A stretch of 40,293 nt of DNA. Source: Acutalibacteraceae bacterium (GTDB lineage Bacteria > Bacillota > Clostridia > Oscillospirales > Acutalibacteraceae). The notes under the pieces are model-generated. The model was not told the origin of the DNA. It saw nothing but the letters and a program-made list of their open reading frames with translations, and searched no databases. Below are positions 150 through 23,709 of this stretch, piece after piece. The position numbers and the translations under genes are program-made. The stretch lies in NCBI GenBank assembly GCA_045604745.1, contig JAZUOR010000124.1, positions 1 through 40,293 of the forward strand. The letters run 5' to 3'. Within the stretch, counting starts at the first letter, position 1; every line of letters starts with the position of its first letter.

Positions 150-633
150 TGATGCTCTCTCCTTCGATTTTTTTGATATTCTCTTCTATCTGAATTATGG
201 TGTGTATGGTGGTGCGCAGCTGTTCTTCCGGAATCCCTTTGAACATGGCTGTCATTATGCGGGCGCTCATTTCATCGTTGCGGCTGCAGTATTCCATGCA
301 GTGCGGCGTAAGTAAAACCCGCTGCTTTCGCCTGTCCTCCGGGTCGGACGTTATTTGGACAAAGTCTTTTTTCTCCAGCTTGAGCAGTAGCTGCTTTACG
401 TTCTGGTGGGATGTGCCGATGATTTCCGCCAGTTCTTTTATTGTGGGCGGTGTACGGCAGAGATTTATGCATATGATGGCAAAAAACTGCTTCCAGCTTA
501 TCTCCTTCATCTGCCGGTCAGCCATTGCCTGAAAGCGGTTGTCAAACGCACTGAGCAGACCGAGAAGGAAATATGACGATTCTATGCCGGAAAAGTCTAC
601 ATTTTCGTGCTCAAATATTTCTCTGAAATCCAT
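142..633 (-). CDS. MarR-family transcriptional regulator
   Basis: 163-aa ORF. The winged-HTH core (TIKELAEIIGTSHQNVKQLLLKLEKKDFVQITSDPEDRRKQRVLLTP) matches the MarR pattern. Palindromic operator candidates lie just upstream. Confidence 0.85.
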   Translation of the reverse strand: MDFREIFEHENVDFSGIESSYFLLGLLSAFDNRFQAMADRQMKEISWKQFFAIICINLCRTPPTIKELAEIIGTSHQNVKQLLLKLEKKDFVQITSDPEDRRKQRVLLTPHCMEYCSRNDEMSARIMTAMFKGIPEEQLRTTIHTIIQIEENIKKIEGESINE

Positions 634-648
634 GCTGCCTCCGATTAA

Positions 649-685
649 GTAATATATTACCTTATCACAAATAGTAACATATTAC
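649..685. promoter_or_regulatory. two copies of a 12-bp palindrome (GTAATATATTAC at 649-660, GTAACATATTAC at 674-685): candidate MarR operator
   Basis: Read directly. The first copy is a perfect palindrome and the second has one mismatch. Centres are 25 bp apart, 16-52 bp upstream of the marR-like start codon. Confidence 0.4.
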
Positions 686-750
686 CTTTCCTTTGTCAAG
701 TGTTATTATGAAAAAAGAGCCCCGACAAAAAGCCGGAGCCCGTGCATGCA

Positions 751-15543: not shown

Positions 15544-15619
15544 CGGGGTGTAGCGCAGTTGGTAGCGCGCCAGCTTTGGGAGCTGGATGCCGCGAGTTCG
15601 AGTCTCGCCACTCCGACCA
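15544..15619 (+). tRNA. tRNA-Pro, anticodon UGG, with encoded CCA
   Basis: Folded by hand. Acceptor stem CGGGGTG/CACTCCG, D arm GCGC-AGTTGGTA-GCGC, anticodon arm CCAGC-TTTGGGA-GCTGG (anticodon TGG), T arm GCGAG-TTCGAGT-CTCGC, discriminator A, then CCA. Confidence 0.95.
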
Positions 15620-15649
15620 TCATTGGGCTACAAAAAAGATGTCGCCCCG

Positions 15650-15679
15650 AAAAAATCCGCACTATTGTGCGGATTTTTT
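15650..15679 (+). terminator. rho-independent terminator after tRNA-Pro
   Basis: AAAAAATCCGCAC-TATT-GTGCGGATTTTTT forms a perfect hairpin with a U-tract. Confidence 0.8.
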
Positions 15680-15826
15680 CGTATCTGTCACTTGATTTTG
15701 TGACATTCAAAACCGTAGATGTCATCGGAGTTTTTCCAGAGTCGAACTCACGTAATTCTCCTATTTCTGCAAAACAATAACATATCCGCCGTATAAACAA
15801 AGAAAAAACAGAACACTTCAAAGCAC

Positions 15827-15879
15827 AAGCCCGCAGTTTTCTCAAGGAGAAATCCTTCAAAGAACTGCGGGCTTTTTTC
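15827..15879 (+). terminator. conserved terminator-like hairpin immediately upstream of the paralog RBS (copy 1)
   Basis: AAGCCCGCAGTT...AACTGCGGGCTT forms a stem, followed by TTTT. The loop contains CAAGGAGAAATCCT. The same structure recurs at 22983-23033. Confidence 0.6.
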
Positions 15880-15910
15880 ATTTTAAATCAAATTGACCAG
15901 GAGGAAACCA

Positions 15911-16444
15911 ATGTACTTTTCATGCAATCAGTCCCACGCACCCAGATCAATCGATAAGCGCTCTCCAGCCGCATCATGGGATCTTATGATGCGCTCTGCG
16001 CTGTCCGATGTCAAGCATTCCGGATTCAACGAGCGGCTTCGGCGGCACCAGGCAAAGGAAAGCTGCTCCAAGATCTTCTTCGAGAGCGAGAATCACCGGG
16101 AGTTATTCTGCAAAGCCGCAAAACAGCTGCGTAAGGACAGACCTCATATGCTGGCAGTCATATATCTCTTGACAGCCAATCGAACGCTATGGTCAAGAAT
16201 CTGTCACAGAATGATTCCGGCAGAGCTATCGTTCGACAATGATCAGCTGGGCAAGGTTAACATCGGAGCATATACCCTGTTTTCATTTGCAAAAGATCTG
16301 CACACCGGATCGCAGCACATAACGGTTGAAGACATGATAGATCCGACAACTATCCCCGATAAGCTGTTTGCGCTCATATGCAACGCCATCGCTATACATC
16401 AGTTTGGCGTCGGCGCTCTTTCTTTTCTGCCGGACAATCCGTGA
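15911..16444 (+). CDS. conserved mobile-element hypothetical protein, paralog 1 (family not confidently recognised)
   Basis: 177 aa starting at the ATG at 15911 after AGGAGG. By eye it is about half identical to the ORF at 23066-23599 (shared RPxMLAVxYLL, LWSRxC, GKVN, FAKDLHTGSxHI, IPDKxFxLICNAI). Confidence 0.75.
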   Translation: MYFSCNQSHAPRSIDKRSPAASWDLMMRSALSDVKHSGFNERLRRHQAKESCSKIFFESENHRELFCKAAKQLRKDRPHMLAVIYLLTANRTLWSRICHRMIPAELSFDNDQLGKVNIGAYTLFSFAKDLHTGSQHITVEDMIDPTTIPDKLFALICNAIAIHQFGVGALSFLPDNP

Positions 16445-16581
16445 TAAGGCAAGCACAATGTCTCACTGCTTTCTTTGTGCATTGTTGGTATGGATATTGA
16501 AAAAGCATTCATTCATACATATCCATTTTCTCTCGCTCATAGATACTACATAAATATTATTATAACGACTTCCTTATTATA

Positions 16582-16610
16582 TTGCTTTTTTACAATGGGC
16601 GTGATAAAAT
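16582..16610 (+). promoter_or_regulatory. candidate promoter of the two-gene cassette (TTGCTT, 17-nt spacer, TGaTAAAAT extended -10)
   Basis: Read directly. The background is AT-rich, so chance matches are likely. Confidence 0.3.
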
Positions 16611-16707
16611 AAAGCAGTATATCATATATTTTTTAAATGCGAAATGAACAATAGATATTGTACCTAATTAGTGGTAAATCATCTCAATTTCGAAAGGGCT
16701 GTGTTTT

Positions 16708-18801
16708 GTGTCTCATTCTAAGACTTCAATCTATCTGAACGCTATCGGTTGTTTTGCTCGTTATTGGATTAGTAATATTTTCCCCACTGAATACCGTATG
16801 CTTGAAATGCAACCAGAGGGTGTCAATTCCATTAATCTCAGTAGCAAATATCTATATAGCGACGAGGTGCAACTTGCTAAGCTCAAAGAAAATAGAGACA
16901 CTGATATCTTTTTAGCCGCATGTTTTAGCTTGCTGTTCACACGGTATATATCTACCACAATTAATGAGGATGTTAAATACAATAGCATTAATCGTCCTAT
17001 ATTGACTTTTGTTTCCAAAAAAGGGTACTGGCTTTATAGAGTTGCACGAAATGGTCTCTGCTTTATTAAGGATGTATTTTCAAGTAGCACCTATGAAGAG
17101 TGCACAAATTTCTGGAGTGAACTAGTAGAAGTAAAAAGTGATCGATACTTTTTAAAATCGCCCCAAATAAATATGTACTCAAATTGTAATATTATTTTGA
17201 TTGATGATATTAGTCATACAGGTGAAAGCATTTCCGAATTTACAAACACAATGTGGAATGATGGGAGAACAATTCACTGCATAGTATTCGCCATCCACCA
17301 AGATGCTTTGATTCTACTTTCAGAAAAACATATACCTATATACTCTCCAAATAAGGACTTGGACAACGATGCCCTTGGAGAACTTTCTATAAGACAAGTC
17401 GCACTATTTCAAGCACTTGGTGTCCCCTACGCTATTGATCTTCCAATAATAAAACTTGAAAATACGCATTGCCATGAAACCCACAATATTGGAGCATCAT
17501 TTTCAAGTGGATTTATTTCTTTTGATGTCTTTAACAGAATACGTAAGGAGTGCAACGAAAAGGGATGGAAATGTGTTGACACCTCTTTCTTCATTGCGCC
17601 TGACGAAGAAGTAAAAAGCTGTGTCTTTTGCCTGAATACAGACCCACTAATGCCAAAGTATAAGAATTTGTTTCAGAACCTTGTGGTTGAGTGCAGCTAT
17701 AGACATATAGGAGAATATGTGGATGTTTCTCTTGTTCCTTTCGCGATTATGCGCTCAATAAATTTCTATGAATTATTTACTCTATATAATATTGTTTTCA
17801 AAGATACCGATTACAGAGACGAACTATTTATCTTTATAAAAAAATATATTCCTAGCAAAAGATTTTATCAGAATAAACATAATATATACTTTTTCAATAT
17901 CTTGATTACTGCATTATATCGATCATTAGTATATTTTTTCAGTTTGTATGTATCGAAACAATTCCATGAACTATTGAGTCATTATGATATCTTTCTTTGG
18001 ATTGATAACAGCCACGTTTCAGAGCATTGGGACGAATGTTTCTTCAACAGTAACGTTATAGCTTTATTTTCCGATCAATCCGATATTTCTTATAAAGCGC
18101 TTAATTCGATTTTTGAAAAAATATATGCAGTAAACGACATAGAATTAAGCGATGAGTACTGGACTTCAAAAAAAGAGATTTATCCTTTAGCATCATACGA
18201 AAATCTATACTTTATTATGCATAAGTTTTTTTCGCAACCAATAACACATAAAAAAACAAATTTTTGTTCCATCGAACGACTGGAAGCAACTATGTCAAAA
18301 ATTTCAGGAAAACAAATCGATGATTTGTCTTTTCGTAATGAGTTCACACAAACCATTCTTCGAATGTTGAATCAAAGCGCAATAAGCAACTCAATATATT
18401 TTGATCGTAGCAGCGGATTTGTTTTACGCGGATTTCGCCCCGGAGAAAACTGCAATCTACTTCTGCCCTTCAATCAACCTACAGTATTCTGCGCATTATA
18501 CGAGTATTACTCTTGTTGCATCAACAGTTCTACAGAAAAAAATAATGCAGTCTCAATATACAAAAAAAACTATGATCAGATGACAAAGATGCTTTTAGAT
18601 TATATATATGATGCAAGGCTTAACACTTATTTGGATGTAAATGAAACAAAGCATCTATTGGATTATTATCGAAATATTGACCCTGAAGTTCACATTAAAA
18701 ACAAAAAGTACATTGTAACGAATTTAAATGAAAAAAAATCTACTGATGCAATCTTAGCTAAGGTATTACAGAGTCAAGTTCGAACATTTCCATTGCAGTA
18801 A
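16708..18801 (+). CDS. large PRTase-like (phosphoribosyltransferase-fold) protein with a C-terminal region of about 470 aa of unknown function
   Basis: 697-aa ORF. The PRPP-loop signature NIILIDDISHTGESI (nt 17188-17232) lies about 60 aa after a candidate PPi-loop strand, ILTFVSKKGYWLYRVA. The start is uncertain: GTG at 16708 or ATG at 16795. Confidence 0.7.
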   Translation: MSHSKTSIYLNAIGCFARYWISNIFPTEYRMLEMQPEGVNSINLSSKYLYSDEVQLAKLKENRDTDIFLAACFSLLFTRYISTTINEDVKYNSINRPILTFVSKKGYWLYRVARNGLCFIKDVFSSSTYEECTNFWSELVEVKSDRYFLKSPQINMYSNCNIILIDDISHTGESISEFTNTMWNDGRTIHCIVFAIHQDALILLSEKHIPIYSPNKDLDNDALGELSIRQVALFQALGVPYAIDLPIIKLENTHCHETHNIGASFSSGFISFDVFNRIRKECNEKGWKCVDTSFFIAPDEEVKSCVFCLNTDPLMPKYKNLFQNLVVECSYRHIGEYVDVSLVPFAIMRSINFYELFTLYNIVFKDTDYRDELFIFIKKYIPSKRFYQNKHNIYFFNILITALYRSLVYFFSLYVSKQFHELLSHYDIFLWIDNSHVSEHWDECFFNSNVIALFSDQSDISYKALNSIFEKIYAVNDIELSDEYWTSKKEIYPLASYENLYFIMHKFFSQPITHKKTNFCSIERLEATMSKISGKQIDDLSFRNEFTQTILRMLNQSAISNSIYFDRSSGFVLRGFRPGENCNLLLPFNQPTVFCALYEYYSCCINSSTEKNNAVSIYKKNYDQMTKMLLDYIYDARLNTYLDVNETKHLLDYYRNIDPEVHIKNKKYIVTNLNEKKSTDAILAKVLQSQVRTFPLQ

Positions 18802-18872
18802 GTAACCGCATCACGCTTAGAGCTATAGCTAAATTGCTAGACTATTTTGTGTTTTGTAAGGATTTGATTTTA

Positions 18873-21800
18873 ATGACATGTTTTATCGAACAATGCTTTC
18901 GGAAACGTATTCTTCAGCACCCTGGCGGAAAGGACATCTTGAACAAATGGGAGTCAGATAAAAAGGCTTATCGAGATAGAACTGCTTTGACCGCATTTGA
19001 CTTTCAGCATTTTAGCATGCATGATGAAAGTCACTCTGTAAAGATTCTTAATTATGTTGAGTTGCTTTTAGGCAAAAATCGAATTGCTAATGATTTAAGC
19101 GTAGGCGATTTATGGCTATTGTTAGAGTGCGCATACTTCCATGATATTGGTATGACTCTGACCAAAGATCAGCGAACTAATCTTTGGTTAAATGATAAGA
19201 AATTCAGAGAATACATCACTGACCGATTGAAAGATAATTCAATTGGTCCCCATCGCGATATATTTGAGGCAGCCCAATACTATAAACATGTAGATGACCT
19301 CCTGAATGGCAAATATTCCTCCGAGGTGCTGGACGAAGATATTACTCATACACCAGATTGGCCAGAAACCCTTAACGATAAAATCCGATTGTTAATGACT
19401 GACTATATTCGCCAGCATCATGCGGATTATTGCAGGAATGCATTAGATGAAATCGTGATCAAGGACAGTGAATTCTTCGACGGAGTAATAGAAAAACGAT
19501 TATATGAACTAGTTTCCATTATCTCAGCACAACACACGAAAGAGTTTCACAATATTTTTCTTGATCTCCAGTATCAAGAGATTGCTTTTGGAAATATATA
19601 TATTCATCCGCAGTTTATTGCCGCATTACTTCGCATCGGAGATGTGCTAGATATAGATAATAACCGTTTTAACGTTAGAGTTTTAGACCATATCGGCACT
19701 TTGCCTCCATCGAGTGCTCTTCATCTTGAAAAACATAAATCTTTAACAAACTACAACGTGAGTTCTTACGGAATTACAGCTGTTGCATGTTCATCTGATC
19801 TTGATGTCTGTAAGATCACTCGTGATTGGTTTAACTGGATCGAATCTGAGGTCAAAGAAATAAAATATCATTGGAACAACATTGCTCCCAAAAGACTCAA
19901 TCATTGTCGCCTGAAATTTTGTGATTTAAGAGTGTTCCTTAATGGGAATGAATTTACTTCGCATAATGTTAATCAGTTCAGTTTTGACAGCCGCAAGATG
20001 CAGAAGCTATTAATTGGCGATAGTATATATTCTTGCAAACTCGATTGTATTCGAGAATACATACAAAATTCCATAGATGCGTCAAAAGTAAAAGTATGGG
20101 AAATCCTAAAACACGAAAACGCTGAATATCTCTTCAAAAACAGCAACCATAGTTGGCCTTGGTCAATGACATTGCCATGTGACCTTAAGGAAGATATATT
20201 TAATCAATTTCCTATTAGTATCGAACTATCATTACGTAAGGCAACTAAGCTAGGCGAAATTGATCAGATTATCTTTTCAATTCATGACTACGGAATCGGG
20301 ATGGATAGCGCCTGTGTAAAAGACATAACTACTATCGGTAAAGGCTGGCGTAATCGCCTAGAGTATCAAGATGTATTTTGCAGTGCACCGAAGTGGTTAC
20401 GTCCTACTGGCGGATTTGGAATCGGCATTCAATCTGCATTTATGCTGACGGATCAAGTAATCTATTTAACTCGGTCTGAAAACGAACCATACGGTCATGT
20501 AATTAGATTGGATTCACCATCTAAGGGAGGCAATGTCAGTGATGAGATTCGAAAAGGTGTTTTAAGAGGCACAAAAGTTGAGTTTGCTATTGATGCATTT
20601 TTGTTTTTAGATCCCAGTTTGTTAGGTCTGAGTAACACAGTACAAGAGTATGTCCGCAAAAAAATGAACGCAACAGTCGCAGCGATGTTTTCAGACCAAT
20701 ATTTGTTAGAGCTTGCTGGAACAGTATGTCGTGGATATATTGAGGAACAGCTTCCTAATTCGCTATTTCCGATTCGTTTTAGCTTCCGAGGACAAAAATC
20801 CATTTTGTTACCTTCACCTAGCTATTACGAATATGATATAATCGGTAATGAGATTGTTGGTAAGTACCCGCTTCGCATGCATTCTTTTAAGGACATGAAT
20901 ACTACCGACGTTTTTGAGGATAGCTCAAAAGACTCTTATGTATACCACATTCTTCCCAATGAGCAGATCCCCACTTACGATGGGCGTGATAAAAAAATCA
21001 TTCTATGGAGTCGTACTCACATGGATTGTGTTGATTTTATATTTTCAGATGCACCATTGAATCATTCAATAGGAAAGTCGGCAACCATAACTTTTAAGGA
21101 TATTTTAGTGCCAGATCACGGAAAAGAACTGGAAATCCCAAATGTAATATATAGATATAATCTTTTGGGCCAAACTGCTGGAAACGCACTTCTTGTAAGC
21201 CGTGCAAAGCTAAATCGTGATTTTGAAAGTATTTTTCTTGAAAGACTATATCAATATCTTTATTGCGCCCTTACGATTCTAATCCCTGAATCGATAAAAG
21301 AAAATATTGTTACAGCAAATAGCTATAAGCGAATGTTGTTTGCTTTGATATCTCAGAAAGCATTCCAAAAAGGTCTTTCTGATACAATAAATACATTACA
21401 AATATGTGATCATGCAGACAGCACATATCTGAACACTATTTACCATATCAAACCCACCAATCCAGACGCAGATGACTCATTGCAATATAGTATTGTTAGA
21501 GAAGATGCCAAAAATGCAATTAGCGAATTACTGAAAATACTTAGCAAGTATCACGAGAACCCTTCGCAATGCTTTGTTCTTTACACCCTATCTCATATTG
21601 ATAATACGAACGAATCCATTGTTCCGTCAGCACATTCTTGGATCTCTGTGTTTTCCATTCAACAAACCGAATACTATAATAGCGATGAACTAGAATCTGA
21701 AAATGCGGATAATCTGGACAGCGAATACGATTCTCTTTATTGCGGATTTTTTGAGCAAGATATCGCATCCACAAAATATTCTAGTAAAAAGGAATATGAT

Positions 21801-22379
21801 TCATTGCTGCAAAATATATGTATATTCAGCGAGGATTGGGAGTATTGTTTTGCTAATCTTTTGATAGATAAAAATACTGTGCTAATAAAAAAAATAAGTC
21901 CATTTGTGTTATCCGTAGAAAGTGACGCTCCAACCCTTAATCGGTATTATAAGATAACAAAATTCCATTTTAAAAATGTTGATTCATCAGATATTGATCA
22001 TGAAATTTATCATACTCATCCTTTGTTTGATGACTTAGCATGTCAAGCTAAATATCCACAATTGAGAGTAAAGGCAGTACCTTTCCCAAAATCCGGCAAG
22101 AGTAGCAATTTCAAATTTGCGCATCTTATTCCCGGAAAGGAAATACTAGGCAGCTTAACTGAAGTTGGTTTGAATCATAGGGAAATTACCACAGAAGCTA
22201 TCAGGCAAGCTTTAATTACAGACGCTGGTCTATTAACTGACTTCAAACGTTTGGTTAGGTGGACATACATACACCAATATAAAAATTCAAACGACAATTC
22301 ATATTCCTACCAAGAAATAGAGCAGGCGTACTTGACGATGCTTCTCGATATTATCAAAAGCCTAAACTTCTCAAAATAA
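18873..22379 (+). CDS. giant HD-domain phosphohydrolase fused to a GHKL (Bergerat-fold) ATPase, with a C-terminal region of about 600 aa of unknown function
   Basis: HD motifs: HDESHSV, AYFHDIGM (nt 19140-19145 encode HD), RQHHADY and LLRIGDVLDID. GHKL motifs: N-box IREYIQNSIDA (about 20049-20087), G1 DYGIGMD (20286-20306), G2 GGFGIGIQSAF (20409-20441) and RGTKVEF. I chose the ATG at 18873; the ORF track opens at a TTG at 18834. Confidence 0.8.
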   Translation: MTCFIEQCFRKRILQHPGGKDILNKWESDKKAYRDRTALTAFDFQHFSMHDESHSVKILNYVELLLGKNRIANDLSVGDLWLLLECAYFHDIGMTLTKDQRTNLWLNDKKFREYITDRLKDNSIGPHRDIFEAAQYYKHVDDLLNGKYSSEVLDEDITHTPDWPETLNDKIRLLMTDYIRQHHADYCRNALDEIVIKDSEFFDGVIEKRLYELVSIISAQHTKEFHNIFLDLQYQEIAFGNIYIHPQFIAALLRIGDVLDIDNNRFNVRVLDHIGTLPPSSALHLEKHKSLTNYNVSSYGITAVACSSDLDVCKITRDWFNWIESEVKEIKYHWNNIAPKRLNHCRLKFCDLRVFLNGNEFTSHNVNQFSFDSRKMQKLLIGDSIYSCKLDCIREYIQNSIDASKVKVWEILKHENAEYLFKNSNHSWPWSMTLPCDLKEDIFNQFPISIELSLRKATKLGEIDQIIFSIHDYGIGMDSACVKDITTIGKGWRNRLEYQDVFCSAPKWLRPTGGFGIGIQSAFMLTDQVIYLTRSENEPYGHVIRLDSPSKGGNVSDEIRKGVLRGTKVEFAIDAFLFLDPSLLGLSNTVQEYVRKKMNATVAAMFSDQYLLELAGTVCRGYIEEQLPNSLFPIRFSFRGQKSILLPSPSYYEYDIIGNEIVGKYPLRMHSFKDMNTTDVFEDSSKDSYVYHILPNEQIPTYDGRDKKIILWSRTHMDCVDFIFSDAPLNHSIGKSATITFKDILVPDHGKELEIPNVIYRYNLLGQTAGNALLVSRAKLNRDFESIFLERLYQYLYCALTILIPESIKENIVTANSYKRMLFALISQKAFQKGLSDTINTLQICDHADSTYLNTIYHIKPTNPDADDSLQYSIVREDAKNAISELLKILSKYHENPSQCFVLYTLSHIDNTNESIVPSAHSWISVFSIQQTEYYNSDELESENADNLDSEYDSLYCGFFEQDIASTKYSSKKEYDSLLQNICIFSEDWEYCFANLLIDKNTVLIKKISPFVLSVESDAPTLNRYYKITKFHFKNVDSSDIDHEIYHTHPLFDDLACQAKYPQLRVKAVPFPKSGKSSNFKFAHLIPGKEILGSLTEVGLNHREITTEAIRQALITDAGLLTDFKRLVRWTYIHQYKNSNDNSYSYQEIEQAYLTMLLDIIKSLNFSK

Positions 22380-22413
22380 AAAGTGGAAGGTTAAACTTGC
22401 GTAGAACTGAACT

Positions 22414-22456
22414 CAACCACTAAACTCGAGCTCCAATGAGCCGAGTTTAGTGGTTG
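22414..22456 (+). terminator. 15-bp perfect-stem hairpin downstream of the cassette (probable terminator)
   Basis: CAACCACTAAACTCG, a 13-nt loop, then CGAGTTTAGTGGTTG, followed by CTTCTTTCTT, 35 nt after the stop codon. Confidence 0.6.
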
Positions 22457-22982
22457 CTTCTTTCTTAGTAATCATCGAAGGGTGGCGAAGCCACTTGATA
22501 AGGTACAATAAAAATAGACATGGTTTTCAGGCTCTTGGTAGAATGAAGTTGCTACACAAACATTCGAAAGGAGAGCAGCCCTTGACGGTGGCGTTGACAT
22601 CTTGAATCCCCATTGCACCCCCATTGAGTTCCGGCAACATGACGGAACTCCTAGACCTCAATTTTTCTTCTTAGCACCGCACTACAACAGAATTATTCCG
22701 AGAGTTCAGCTTCGCATAAATAAATTCACCTACATCATCCTTTTCGTATTACACATACATTATTGGGGTACAATTTAGATGCCCCAGCAAAAAGCCGCAC
22801 AATAGTGCTTTTTTGCGTTAAGAACCTGAATTTTTCGTTGGTGTACAAAAGATGACATATCGCTTTTTCCGATGCTGAACTCAAACATAAACGCATAAAT
22901 CATCCAATTTTGATGGTCAAGAGTAAAAAATCAAAATATTTTTTGATTTATAGACACCACAAACAATTAATTATTCGAAGCA

Positions 22983-23033
22983 AAGCCCGCAGTTTACCCA
23001 AGGAGAAATCCTCAATAGACTGCGGGCTTTTTC
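22983..23033 (+). terminator. conserved terminator-like hairpin upstream of paralog 2 (copy 2)
   Basis: AAGCCCGCAGT...ACTGCGGGCTT followed by TTT, with the same CAAGGAGAAATCCT loop core as copy 1. Confidence 0.6.
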
Positions 23034-23065
23034 TATTTTAAACCAAAAATGAGGAGGTATCATTC

Positions 23066-23599
23066 ATGTACTTTTCAGACAGTCCGTCCACCAGACCTCG
23101 CTTCCCCTGTCAGACCGATCCGCCCACTACATGGGATGCCATGATCCTCTCCGTGTTGAGTGATCTTGATAACGACAACTTCCGGTACCGGCTCAACAGG
23201 ATGATTACAAGAGGAAAACCATCCGGCATATTCTTTGCAAATGAAACTCACTACCGGATATTCTACCGAGGCTCAAAGCAGCTCCGGCAGGATCGCCCGT
23301 ATATGCTTGCGGTGGTATATCTGCTCTCCTCCTGTAAAAGATTGTGGTCAAGAGTCTGCAGCGATAAGCTGCCAAGTGAGATCGTATCCGATGATAAGGC
23401 TATAGGCAAAGTCAATGGAAACATCTACACCATATACTCATTCGCAAAGGATTTGCACACCGGCTCACGCCACATATCGGTCGGAGATATGGCAGATGTC
23501 CTGCTTATCCCCGACAAACAGTTCGTTCTCATCTGCAACGCCATCACAATACACAGCTTTGGCGTAGCGGCTTTGGACTTTATGCCGAACGAATCATAA
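23066..23599 (+). CDS. conserved mobile-element hypothetical protein, paralog 2
   Basis: 177 aa, with RBS GAGGAGG. Paralogous to 15911-16444. Confidence 0.75.
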   Translation: MYFSDSPSTRPRFPCQTDPPTTWDAMILSVLSDLDNDNFRYRLNRMITRGKPSGIFFANETHYRIFYRGSKQLRQDRPYMLAVVYLLSSCKRLWSRVCSDKLPSEIVSDDKAIGKVNGNIYTIYSFAKDLHTGSRHISVGDMADVLLIPDKQFVLICNAITIHSFGVAALDFMPNES

Positions 23600-23709
23600 T
23601 CGGCTACTCACAATGATGCGAGGGAAATCTTGTGCATTGTTGGTATAGATATCAGCCAACCGAGGTGATATTGTCTTGAACTAAAATACGACTGGAGGAG
23701 GTGATCACC

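Follow-up and report, generated by a model that had tools for sequence, protein, structure and literature searches.

A gene pair encoding a phosphoribosyltransferase-fold protein and an HD-GHKL ATPase: a candidate conflict module on mobile DNA of gut Clostridia

An AT-rich cassette of two genes, ORF A and ORF B, was analysed in a window of 40,293 nucleotides, the whole stretch of contig JAZUOR010000124.1 of an Acutalibacteraceae bacterium under study. ORF A encodes a protein predicted to contain a phosphoribosyltransferase (PRTase) fold and ORF B a large protein in which an HD-CE domain is fused to an Hsp90-like GHKL ATPase. The cassette is considered, with about an even chance of being so, to be an unnamed prokaryotic conflict module, most likely directed against phages or mobile elements, in which an ATP-driven clamp formed by ORF B would gate an HD effector. 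The pair is a credible new defence candidate. What is new here is only the pairing of A with B and the A family, neither of which is catalogued; to this extent the original prediction of an undescribed cassette stands, but the HD domain is already present in Pfam as HD-CE and the B-like proteins constitute a broad family annotated as 'ATP-binding protein'.

Organisation of the cassette and its mobile setting

Both ORFs are real, co-directional genes according to the open reading frame listing. ORF A starts with GTG, 8 nt downstream of a likely ribosome-binding site (AAAGGG), while the start of ORF B was placed at the ATG at 18873 and not at the TTG at 18834, with a Shine-Dalgarno sequence ahead of it and a public gene call of the same length. 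With this start the gap between the genes is 71 nt, in agreement with the predicted terminator-free gap of about 70 nt; a terminator scan of the spacer returned none and the spacer is unstructured, shuffled sequence folding at least as well (z = +1.3). The two genes form an operon, the promoter of which presumably lies in the AT-rich region upstream of ORF A (Table 1), where a promoter scan returned one weak sigma-70-like match (16601-16630), no better than chance. The 15-bp-stem hairpin predicted after the ORFs is present, with a 100% complementary stem, a 13-nt loop and four additional inner pairs in the fold; its folding (-37.7 kcal/mol, z = -8.3) was equalled in 0 of 200 shuffles.

The GC content falls to 0.33-0.39 over 16.5-22.5 kb against about 0.50 outside (0.354 for the cassette and 0.509 for the remaining window), which bears out the foreign composition ascribed to the insert, and in 11 of 16 loci the cassette is lower in GC than its flanks. 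The ORFs do not quite fill the insert as had been claimed, with approximately 300-500 bp of non-coding DNA beyond the hairpin. A tRNA-Pro gene is present at 15544-15619, and the presence of genes for ArdA/LPD28, an orphan D12 methylase, TrbL and a sortase downstream confirms the conjugative-element setting near antirestriction genes that had been proposed. The cassette occupies a 7.1-kb module (15618-22757) flanked by a diverged direct repeat, the spacing of 7155-7156 nt being common to repeat families D1, D2, D6 and D8. The left copy holds the tRNA-Pro 3'-end junction, a terminator hairpin, a second hairpin (15827-15874), a 177-aa gene (ATG at 15911 to 16444) and the 23-mer TTGTGCATTGTTGGTATGGATAT at 16475-16497; the right copy, with which the ArdA-bearing conjugative element itself begins, holds hairpins, a 177-aa paralogue (23066-23599) and the 23-mer at 23630-23652. 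The two repeat-encoded proteins are 51% identical (E=7e-67). The cassette was acquired horizontally, and its place is in an integrated conjugative element, at the end next to tRNA-Pro.

Table 1. Positions in the window of the features of the cassette and its flanks
Feature	Position	Strand	Details or basis
Left copy, diverged direct repeat	15618-16497	+	repeat families and pairwise DNA alignment
AT-rich 5' region, presumed promoter	16498-16707	+	sequence reading
ORF A	16708-18801	+	697 aa
ORF A N-terminal helical extension	aa 1-95		
ORF A PRTase-fold domain (predicted)	16993-17445	+	aa ~96-246
FVSKKGYW, PPi-loop-like motif	17008-17031	+	after first core beta-strand; translation, strand/helix from model
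NIILIDDISHTGESI, PRPP-binding loop signature	17188-17232	+	translation; weak Pribosyltran match here
ORF A remainder	aa ~247-697		beta-rich domain and helical C-terminal region
A-B spacer	18802-18872	+	71 nt; ribosome-binding site AAGGA 18858-18862
ORF B	18873-22379	+	1168 aa; HD-CE, Hsp90-like GHKL N-terminal/middle, variable C-terminal region
HD-CE domain (Pfam PF24391)	19002-19856	+	E=8.9e-42, profile positions 1-262 of 263
FHDIGM motif in HD-CE	19137-19154	+	translation
GHKL (Bergerat) ATPase N-terminal domain	20028-20672	+	motif conservation, phmmer, NCBIfam
N-box REYIQNSIDA	20052-20081	+	translation
Hsp90-middle-like (transducer) region	20673-21512	+	Foldseek; Arg777 invariant
Fast-evolving C-terminal region of ORF B	21513-22379	+	identity to homologues 16%
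Terminator-like hairpin	22414-22456	+	arms 22414-22428 / 22442-22456; CUUCUUUCUU tail after
Right copy, diverged direct repeat	22758-23652	+	repeat families and pairwise DNA alignment

Domains and conserved residues of the two proteins

ORF A is predicted to adopt a diverged type-I PRTase fold, an assignment that is structurally weak. In Foldseek searches of the PDB with the AlphaFold2 model (pLDDT 84.6, pTM 0.88), the best matches were almost all type-I PRTases, with probabilities up to 1.0, E-values of 0.02-0.7 and TM-scores of 0.35-0.5 normalised by target length. The Pfam Pribosyltran model matched weakly and below threshold (E=0.18, aa 152-195), and the homologue P0142 carries a weak precomputed match to the same model. 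The type-I PRPP-loop signature noted originally was upheld by its conservation as well as by the fold: the signature runs from a hydrophobic strand through DD and a loop with G into a helix, and among 118 representatives D166 is kept in 112, D167 in 115 and G172 in 111. The PPi-loop pattern [R/K]-K-[G/A/S]-Y-W is kept across the same 118 representatives, K104, K105, G106, Y107 and W108 being invariant in A1, and in the model both motifs fall on the expected strand-loop-helix elements. Since the residues of both loops are kept, the most likely ligand or substrate of ORF A is a 5-phosphoribosyl compound, either PRPP or a nucleotide. The protein exceeds salvage PRTases three- to fourfold in size, and its C-terminal region of about 450 aa is conserved and has no match to anything known. 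The family has 19 close clusters; at 50% identity, 192 clusters were found in a set of 1.84 billion representatives.

ORF B fuses an HD domain to a complete GHKL motif set, as originally described. The HD-CE domain, which matches its Pfam profile over nearly the full length, carries HDESH and FHDIGM together with the invariant residues His183, His221, Asp257 and Asp260; a search with this profile found no solved relative. The N-box is followed by the G1 box DxGxG (D472, G474, G476) and the G2 box GGFGxG (G513-G518), and 44 homologues of 26-52% identity show no change at the catalytic residues of the HD and GHKL domains. Searches of the PDB with phmmer retrieved Grp94/Hsp90 N-terminal domains (E about 1e-4), and Foldseek aligned approximately 510 columns to the N-terminal and middle domains of HtpG, TRAP1 and Hsp90 (E 8e-10 to 1e-7). 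The NCBIfam HSP90/HtpG equivalog models match ORF B weakly, at 22-26 bits against cut-offs of 371-455 bits. The enzymatic half of the protein is conserved (mean identities to homologues of 45%, for the HD domain, and 40%), whereas the C-terminal half has diverged (19% in the middle region and 16% in the C-terminal region). Model confidence falls in the C-terminal region, which is possibly a dimerisation, recognition or partner-binding module.

Distribution and proposed function

The A-B pair recurs in gut Clostridia. Co-occurrence, set beforehand as a test of the prediction, was observed in all 20 A-family loci for which sufficient context was available, in the orders A-B, A-C-B, B-A-C or A-C-B-SLATT; the linkage of A to B is obligate. 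Some B-like proteins stand alone or next to different partners, so that A is an accessory of one sub-family, not a universal partner.

No match to either protein was found in PADLOC v2 (5027 models), even at E<=1, and a literature search did not find a paper describing the pair, in keeping with the original remark that it could not be matched to a named system. Thus, ORF A lies outside the toxin/effector models of that library, the Shedu models do not match ORF B, and a defence role rests on guilt by association. This association is partial. Among 125 neighbours are matches to HEC-02A+B, PD-T4-4_A, AriA/PtuA/GajA-like proteins and MADS; an AAA_15/21 ATPase or AAA-PDDEXK_9 gene directly follows B in two loci (L021 and L018) and a SLATT/DUF4231 gene is directly 3' of B in two others (L005 and L042). 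One B-like gene lies within a STAND cluster with SIR2-STAND genes on its flanks, another lies directly downstream of an RVT_1 and HD-CE fusion of 1114 aa (L028), and plasmid copies are found near Abi genes, recombinases and an AAA-ATPase and UvrD pair, which we read as Gabija-like. The proposed neighbourhood beside defence genes was therefore found at some loci (HEC-02, AAA_15/OLD-like ATPases, SIR2-STAND, Abi), but several others (L009, L012 and more) lie amid housekeeping or polysaccharide-biosynthesis genes.

As a conflict module, the cassette would have ORF B as its core, an Hsp90-type ATP-driven clamp, probably dimeric, whose ATPase cycle would gate the N-terminal HD-CE domain as a metal-dependent phosphohydrolase or nuclease effector, the substrate of which may be nucleic acid, dNTP or a signalling nucleotide. 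Recognition of the trigger or of the partner protein would fall to the rapidly diverging C-terminal half. ORF A, which is tied obligately to one sub-family of B, could be either a ligand sensor feeding into ORF B or a second effector aimed at the nucleotide pool in the manner of ShosT.

An unlikely alternative is a toxin-antitoxin or addiction module stabilising the mobile element, with ORF A as a PRTase-type metabolic toxin and ORF B neutralising or regulating it, for example by hydrolysis of the ORF A product by the HD domain. A is never found without B and B is sometimes alone, the asymmetry that would arise if A were harmful in the absence of B, and the operon is tight and on mobile DNA; ShosT, too, is reported as a PRTase-domain toxin disrupting purine metabolism (PMC11961720). 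However, antitoxins are not typically ATPase-effector fusions of 1168 aa in which one half is hypervariable, ORF A matches none of the PADLOC toxin/effector models, and the occurrence of B-like proteins alone or with unrelated partners (RT-HD-CE, STAND cluster) argues for an effector function of B itself. Such a mechanism would in any case be compatible with abortive-infection defence.

It is quite unlikely that the cassette performs MORC- or Wadjet-like surveillance of DNA topology or foreign DNA against plasmids, in which the GHKL and middle domains of ORF B would clamp DNA, the HD domain would cut it and ORF A would be a cofactor. The HD domain of Cas3 acts as a nuclease and offers a precedent. 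Foldseek also retrieves MutL, Topo VI-B, GyrB and SMCHD1 (E about 1e-5), and the GHKL clamps of paraMORC/VcSduA-type defence proteins, with their middle domains, bind DNA (PMC12137116). The best structure and sequence matches are nevertheless to the Hsp90 family and not to MutL/MORC, the Pfam search detected no DNA-binding domain, and the PRTase-fold partner is left without an obvious role.

A place in the leading-region neighbourhood of a conjugative element, with antirestriction genes nearby, would likewise be compatible with an anti-defence or establishment function, with the cassette expressed on entry into the recipient to neutralise host immunity, for instance through degradation of signalling nucleotides by the HD domain or depletion of PRPP-derived signals. 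HD phosphohydrolases can degrade cyclic nucleotides, and the cassette lies between the tRNA-proximal end and a same-strand block of DUF6809, DUF4314, ArdA-LPD28 and the orphan D12 methylase. This is judged very unlikely, as the cassette is in a separate module upstream of the ArdA element, most homologous cassettes are outside such leading regions (L009 between an M20 peptidase and the YchF GTPase; L005 and L021 in chromosomal variable regions), ORF A has no homologues in the phage or plasmid collections searched, and the sole match of ORF B in the phage collection is one unannotated 7-kb metagenomic fragment. An ordinary role in metabolism or proteostasis and none in conflict, with ORF A serving as a PRTase of nucleotide salvage and ORF B as a chaperone like HtpG whose HD domain is regulatory, is highly improbable: both folds are common among housekeeping enzymes and some loci lie amid metabolic genes, but the family is patchy and rare, the composition foreign, the gene order variable and half of ORF B fast-evolving, ORF B scores far below the HtpG/HSP90 cut-offs, and ORF A is oversized and mostly of unknown fold.

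Comparison with known systems

Tiamat (TmtA) and Mza are reportedly defence systems organised around a GHKL-superfamily ATPase; neither is known to carry an HD domain or to be paired with a PRTase, and ORF B has no PADLOC match. With Hsp90, HtpG and TRAP1, ORF B shares the Bergerat fold, the N-box with its catalytic Glu, the G1 and G2 boxes, the long N-terminal and middle alignment and an invariant Arg in the middle region. It differs from them in its low equivalog scores, in having an additional HD domain of 345 aa, in a variable C-terminal half unrelated to theirs and in a mobile, patchy distribution.

ORF A resembles the PRTase-domain toxin of ShosTA, in which ShosT is paired with the DprA/SLOG-like ShosA and is reported to disrupt purine metabolism by PRTase and pyrophosphatase activities (PMC11961720); both are PRTase-fold proteins of two-gene defence-type modules. 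A PRTase-like fold is also shared with the effectors of retron type III-A3, such as that of Retron-Eco11 (PMC12746101). In contrast to these, ORF A matches no PADLOC model, is partnered by an HD-GHKL ATPase and not by a DprA-like protein or a reverse transcriptase with ncRNA, and bears its conserved C-terminal region of unknown fold. The RVT_1 and HD-CE fusion beside a B-like protein is similar, by domain architecture alone, to UG24, a class-3 UG/Abi reverse transcriptase combining RT and phosphohydrolase, with a variant having two uncharacterised partner genes (PMC9226505), and indicates a second use of the HD-CE domain, in a defence-associated family built on RT; the window, in contrast to UG24, contains no reverse transcriptase.

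VcSduA, a paraMORC3-type Shedu protein (type I-D), is a validated single-protein defence in which a GHKL ATPase is combined with a PD-(D/E)xK nuclease, the ATPase and nuclease residues both being required (PMC12137116); it serves as a precedent for the conflict-module reading. ORF B has its effector at the N-terminus, as an HD-CE domain, and VcSduA at the C-terminus, as a DUF4263 nuclease, the ATPase of ORF B is Hsp90-like and not MutL/MORC-like, and the ORF B sub-family needs a PRTase-fold partner. ORF B nevertheless shares with VcSduA a GHKL ATPase and a clamp-like middle domain joined to a hydrolytic effector, and B-like proteins are similarly able to stand alone, on mobile DNA.

Structure of the cassette and its genomic setting

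The cassette consists of two long open reading frames on the same strand, ORF A, coding for a phosphoribosyltransferase (PRTase)-like protein, and ORF B, coding for a protein with an HD-CE domain and an Hsp90-like GHKL ATPase (coordinates of all features are listed in the table below). The start of ORF B was set at ATG 18873, which is preceded at 10 nt by an AAGGA ribosome-binding site, and the identical protein is 1168 residues long in a public gene call; the spacer between the two genes is therefore 71 nt. No terminator-like site was found on scanning this spacer, and its fold is not more stable than that of shuffled sequence (z = +1.3). A perfect inverted repeat is located 34 nt after the stop codon of ORF B and forms a stable hairpin (-37.7 kcal/mol, z = -8.3). 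The GC content is 0.33-0.39 over about 16.5-22.5 kb as against about 0.50 elsewhere in the window, the cassette having an average of 0.354 and the remainder 0.509.

The DNA 5' of 15 kb carries ordinary chromosomal genes, including those for an M42 peptidase, a radical-SAM enzyme and a NUDIX hydrolase, and is followed by a tRNA-Pro gene. Genes 3' of the cassette code for DUF6809, DUF4314, an ArdA-LPD28 antirestriction protein, an orphan D12 methylase, a SpaA/thioester adhesin, a YpsA-SLOG protein, TrbL and a sortase; together they make up the leading portion of an integrative conjugative element of Bacillota. The original prediction had described two co-directional genes with a gap of about 70 nt and no terminator between them, followed by a hairpin with a 15-bp stem, of AT-rich foreign composition and within a tRNA-adjacent mobile element with antirestriction genes, and the analysis agrees with it on each of these points. 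The YpsA/SLOG-family (DprA-like) protein, the gene for which adjoins that of TrbL, is unrelated to the cassette but thematically akin to it, as SLOG domains are nucleotide-binding modules that occur in conflict systems such as ShosA.

A diverged direct repeat, the left copy of which begins within 2 nt of the 3' end of the tRNA-Pro gene, lies on both sides of the cassette. Each copy contains two hairpins, a gene for a 177-residue protein and a nearly identical 23-mer, TTGTGCATTGTTGGTAT[G/A]GATAT; the two 177-residue proteins are 51% identical and have no Pfam match, and an exact-sequence look-up of the flanking 177-residue protein gave no match. As the repeat is present on both sides, the bracketed DNA is a 7.1-kb module that shares its 'left end' with the ArdA-bearing element and carries ORFs A and B as its sole cargo. 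Thus, the cassette is not a simple insertion into the ArdA-bearing element, and the arrangement suggests either that two related elements accreted in tandem at tRNA-Pro or that one element end was duplicated and serves as a hotspot for cargo. No 'empty-site' version of the element was found. The non-coding stretch of intermediate GC content at the right end of the module has no ORF longer than 58 residues and no Rfam match, so that neither an ORF nor an RNA accounts for it, and it may be what is left of the module's right end. Rfam searches returned only the tRNA and sub-threshold leader matches, and megablast of the region against plasmids matched the tRNA only.

Coordinates of the features in the window and in homologous loci (L numbers denote loci fetched from other genomes that carry A-like and/or B-like genes)
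Feature	Locus	Coordinates	Remark
tRNA-Pro(UGG)	window	15544-15619	
Diverged direct repeat	window	15618-16497 and 22758-23652	about 70-78% DNA identity
23-mer in left repeat copy	window	16475-16497	
Module bracketed by the repeat	window	15618-22757	7.1 kb
ORF A	window	16708-18801	697 aa
ORF B, as in ORF listing	window	18834-22379	1181 aa
Perfect inverted repeat	window	22414-22428 / 22442-22456	15 bp
Intermediate-GC non-coding stretch	window	22457-22757	about 300 bp, between terminator hairpin and right repeat copy
YpsA/SLOG-family protein gene	window	36041-36553	
Gene order A-B	window, L001, L007, L009, L012, L020, L021, L034, L039		
Gene order A-C-B	L005, L014, L015, L017, L018, L022, L031, L042		
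Gene order B-A or B-A-C	L019, L032, L040		
Extra genes (C; DUF4231/SLATT)	L005	7316-8032; 11572-12558	
Extra genes (C; DUF4231/SLATT)	L042	2425-3093; 6549-7091	
Four-gene cluster with B-like gene	L003	2493-11378	B-like gene last
RVT_1 + HD-CE fusion gene	L028	6497-9841	1114 aa
B-like gene	L028	9947-13063	
Split A/B genes	L017	7425-9289 and 9953-13363	
Split A/B genes	L033	10028-11945	

Domain organisation of the two proteins

The N-terminal part of ORF B belongs to the Pfam family HD-CE (PF24391), which was matched at residues 57-341 of the 1181-residue listing with a score of 144 bits (cut-off 27; E=8.9e-42), the match covering positions 1-262 of the 263 of the profile. Little or no variation was observed in 44 homologues (26-52% identical) at the HD ligands H50, D51, H54, H90, D91, H183, H221, D257 and D260, and the metal-ligand set (H...HD...D) is likewise kept in 13 sequences of the HD region. 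The same degree of conservation was observed for the N-box (ExxxNxxD; E395, N399, D402), the G1 motif (DxGxG; D472, G474, G476) and the G2 motif (GxxGxG; G513, G514, G516, G518) of a GHKL ATPase, with REYIQNSIDA verified by translation, and for R777, an arginine of the middle region. A profile of the HD-CE region searched against PDB gave chance matches only (E about 0.5) and no solved structure.

The centre of ORF B is a GHKL (Bergerat) ATPase of the Hsp90 branch. Searches of PADLOC, PHROGs and NCBIfam returned only weak HtpG-type matches; the NCBIfam HSP90 and HtpG models matched weakly, the equivalogs NF003555 and NF010683 scoring 22.8 and 26.2 bits, below their cut-offs of 371 and 455, and phmmer against PDB retrieved the N-terminal domains of Grp94/Hsp90 at E about 1e-4. 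The AlphaFold2 model of ORF B (pLDDT 79) was aligned by Foldseek over about 510 columns with the N-terminal and middle domains of HtpG, TRAP1, Hsp90-beta and GRP94 (E 8e-10 to 1e-7), Hsp90-family proteins ranking above MutL, Topo VI-B, SMCHD1 and GyrB. These Foldseek lists are filled by GHKL proteins (Hsp90, MutL and topoisomerases in PDB; rIIA, Hsp90 and topoisomerases in BFVD), by which any neighbours of the HD domain are masked. An assignment of ORF B to the MutL/MORC type was considered and rejected, since the Hsp90-family matches were consistently better with NCBIfam, phmmer and Foldseek. Mean identity to ORF B is 45% in the HD region, 40% in the N-terminal region of the ATPase, 19% in the middle and 16% in the C-terminal region; the protein is a conserved engine coupled to a half that diverges rapidly.

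No Pfam, NCBIfam, PHROG or PADLOC model matched ORF A at threshold. Pfam Pribosyltran (PF00156) scored 11.5 bits over the DD loop against a cut-off of 26.3 (E=0.18), its precomputed match to the homologue P0142 is classed as 'weak', and a sequence search of PDB gave no match for ORF A. The close family of A comprises 19 clusters, beyond which a profile search of a word-indexed protein database found no homologues, while 1.84 billion representatives, searched exhaustively with an HMM, yielded 192 clusters at E <= 0.001, of which 117 also pass E <= 1e-30; the majority have 580-700 residues and are matched over most of their length. The AlphaFold2 model based on a 19-sequence alignment is of high confidence (pLDDT 84.6, pTM 0.88) and has a five-stranded parallel-beta core, and most of its top 50 Foldseek matches in PDB are type-I PRTases (OPRT, UPRT, APRT, XPRT, HGPRT), the better ones with probabilities of 0.72-1.0 but with weak E values of 0.02-0.7 and TM scores of 0.33-0.54, normalised by target length.

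Strand 98-101 of the model leads into FVSKKGYW, a PPi-loop-like motif, and strand 141-144 into SDRYF. The PRPP loop, NIILIDDISHTGESI, follows the expected order of a hydrophobic strand (162-169, NIILIDDI) with two acidic residues, a glycine-containing loop (SHTGES) and a helix (173-185). Among 118 full-length representatives of the A family, D166 is kept in 112, D167 in 115, G172 in 111, R146 in 107 and K105 in 89, with Arg in a further 7; strong constraint thus acts on these residues. The remaining ~450 residues form a beta-rich domain and a helical domain with the conserved motifs PFAIMRS, TALYR and RGFRxGEN and have no detectable relative. ORF A is concluded to have a diverged PRTase fold, which is probably able to bind a ligand.

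All the sequence motifs quoted in the original prediction for the two proteins were found, and its reading of ORF B as an HD phosphohydrolase fused to a complete set of GHKL motifs is borne out by the Pfam match and the invariant residues. The type-I PRTase signature proposed for ORF A is supported by the loop motif, the model and the conservation, but the Pfam score below threshold and the weak Foldseek scores leave it less secure.

Association of the two genes and their distribution

Thirty-five fetched loci were scanned with HMMs built from the A and B alignments, after which distant members of the A family were sampled. B adjoins A in 20/20 A loci with enough context, in one of three gene orders. 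In the A-C-B loci the two genes are separated by gene C, which codes for a very poorly conserved protein of 150-240 residues with no Pfam match, and in two of these loci (L005 and L042) a DUF4231/SLATT gene, the product of which is a predicted membrane effector, lies directly 3' of B. The cassette of the window has neither gene C nor a SLATT gene. A fusion of gene C into A or B of the window was rejected, as the C HMM has no match there.

B-like genes were also observed without A. In L003, the B-like gene is the last in a cluster with genes for a 462-residue protein with a weak ADP-ribosyltransferase match, a 1025-residue STAND-like AAA_16+TPR protein and a 330-residue Rv3785_N protein; SIR2-nSTAND genes lie on either side of it, so that the cluster clearly represents a defence island, with other partners for the HD-GHKL core. 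In L028, from a Candidatus Scybalomonas MAG, the gene directly 5' of the B-like gene codes for a reverse transcriptase (RVT_1) fused to HD-CE. Lachnospira eligens, Hymenobacter and Pantoea have plasmids with apparently solitary B-like genes, in the vicinity of which are Abi genes, recombinases or an AAA-ATPase+UvrD pair. The expectation that A would be a conserved neighbour of B holds in one direction, A being with B in all loci with enough context but B-like proteins occurring also without A; B therefore looks like a self-sufficient core and A like an obligate accessory of one Clostridia-centred sub-family. The family is concentrated in Clostridia of the human and animal gut (Lachnospiraceae and relatives), and no A homologues were found on plasmids or phages. 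The proteins of the window are outliers, with the nearest B 50% and the nearest A 39% identical. In two cultured isolates, Sporofaciens musculi (L017) and Eisenbergiella porci (L033), A and/or B are broken up into several ORFs and look like pseudogenes, which would agree with frequent decay of the kind seen in costly defence genes.

The 125 neighbours of 16 A-B loci were surveyed with PADLOC and Pfam. PADLOC matched HEC-02A and HEC-02B (two proteins each, E down to 3.5e-99), PD-T4-4_A, AriA/PtuA/GajA-type ATPases, NsnB and MADS components, and Pfam matched AAA_15/21, AAA-ATPase_like/PDDEXK_9, HTH regulators and DUF4231. Many sugar-nucleotide, polysaccharide, housekeeping and other metabolic genes are present among the same neighbours, and some cassettes sit between housekeeping genes. 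The GC content of the cassette is below that of its flanks in 11/16 loci. By raw neighbour counts, the cassettes appear to be associated with conflict genes, though only in part.

Proposed function and relation to known systems

In the model favoured here, B would act as an Hsp90-like, probably dimeric, ATP-driven clamp, the conformational cycle of which would license the N-terminal HD phosphohydrolase or nuclease, with the variable C-terminal half recognising a trigger or a partner; clamps of this type serve as chaperones in cells. A would bind a 5-phosphoribosyl ligand through its PRTase-fold domain and then report it to B, or act as a second effector on PRPP/nucleotide pools. This model is favoured because all three enzymatic modules have kept their catalytic residues, because A depends on B and B does not depend on A, and because B swaps its partners modularly (A, RT-HD-CE, the STAND cluster, SLATT), a behaviour typical of the cores of defence effectors and sensors. 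It is tentatively proposed, as a possibility, that A-B, together with A-C-B and A-C-B-SLATT, represents a new family of bacterial immune systems in which an Hsp90-type clamp switches an HD effector and a dedicated PRTase-fold enzyme reads or rewrites the PRPP/nucleotide pool. Such a family would link Hsp90-like ATPases, phosphoribosyl chemistry and immunity mechanistically, with no described counterpart.

Among the alternatives, a toxin-antitoxin or addiction module with A as the toxin, to be set beside the presence of B at every A locus with enough context and the occurrence of B alone, is unlikely though conceivable. A DNA-clamp system directed against plasmids seems unlikely. Anti-defence cargo of the conjugative element, which the neighbouring antirestriction genes would suit and the separate 7.1-kb module speaks against, is improbable, and plain metabolism is highly improbable despite the metabolic neighbours of some loci.

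The proposal of a defence or conflict role is partly supported: it draws on the domains, the linkage of A to B and the conflict genes near some loci, and is weakened by the lack of a PADLOC match and by the many housekeeping neighbours. The cassette is a well-defined and conserved candidate, one of many uncharacterised defence-like cassettes. If it is a working defence, it would represent a new architecture, in which a GHKL ATPase of the Hsp90 branch is fused to an HD effector and coupled to a PRTase-fold protein, and would provide a first functional handle on Pfam HD-CE, on the A family of roughly 190 clusters, which has no Pfam model, and on Hsp90/sacsin-like ATPase modules outside chaperoning. 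Experimental tests of defence systems in gut Clostridia are few, so that the pair could be of importance to phage-microbiome dynamics and to how conjugative elements spread.

As the original prediction had held, the pair fits no named system: neither protein matched any of the 5027 models of PADLOC-DB v2.0.0 even at E<=1, a collection that presumably covers Shedu, Tiamat, Mza, ShosTA, retron effectors, dGTPase, Detocs, and PDC and HEC candidates, among others. Full-text searches of the openly accessible literature yielded no account of a PRTase-like protein partnered with an HD-CE/Hsp90-like ATPase and nothing relevant on HD-CE/PF24391, PRTase+Hsp90 or GHKL+HD in a defence context, and the openly accessible papers of the Aravind laboratory do not mention such a system. 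The plasmid B-like proteins are labelled only 'ATP-binding protein' or 'hypothetical protein' in RefSeq, and two MAG homologues of B bear the source name 'ATP-binding protein'. The architecture is partly catalogued already, since its HD domain is an existing Pfam family. Judged from its sequence, the cassette is a predicted NTPase-plus-effector conflict module with an unprecedented combination of parts.

The closest functional precedents of the pair include the VcSduA/paraMORC3 Shedu system, a validated combination of GHKL ATPase and nuclease that needs both activities (PMC12137116), and the PRTase-domain effectors of ShosTA (PMC11961720) and of Retron-Eco11 (PMC12746101). In architecture, the RT-HD-CE protein of L028 resembles the UG24 class-3 UG/Abi reverse transcriptases, which are reported to carry a phosphohydrolase domain and to be accompanied by two uncharacterised partner genes (PMC9226505), and by this analogy the HD-GHKL protein of L028 may be one of the two UG24 partners.
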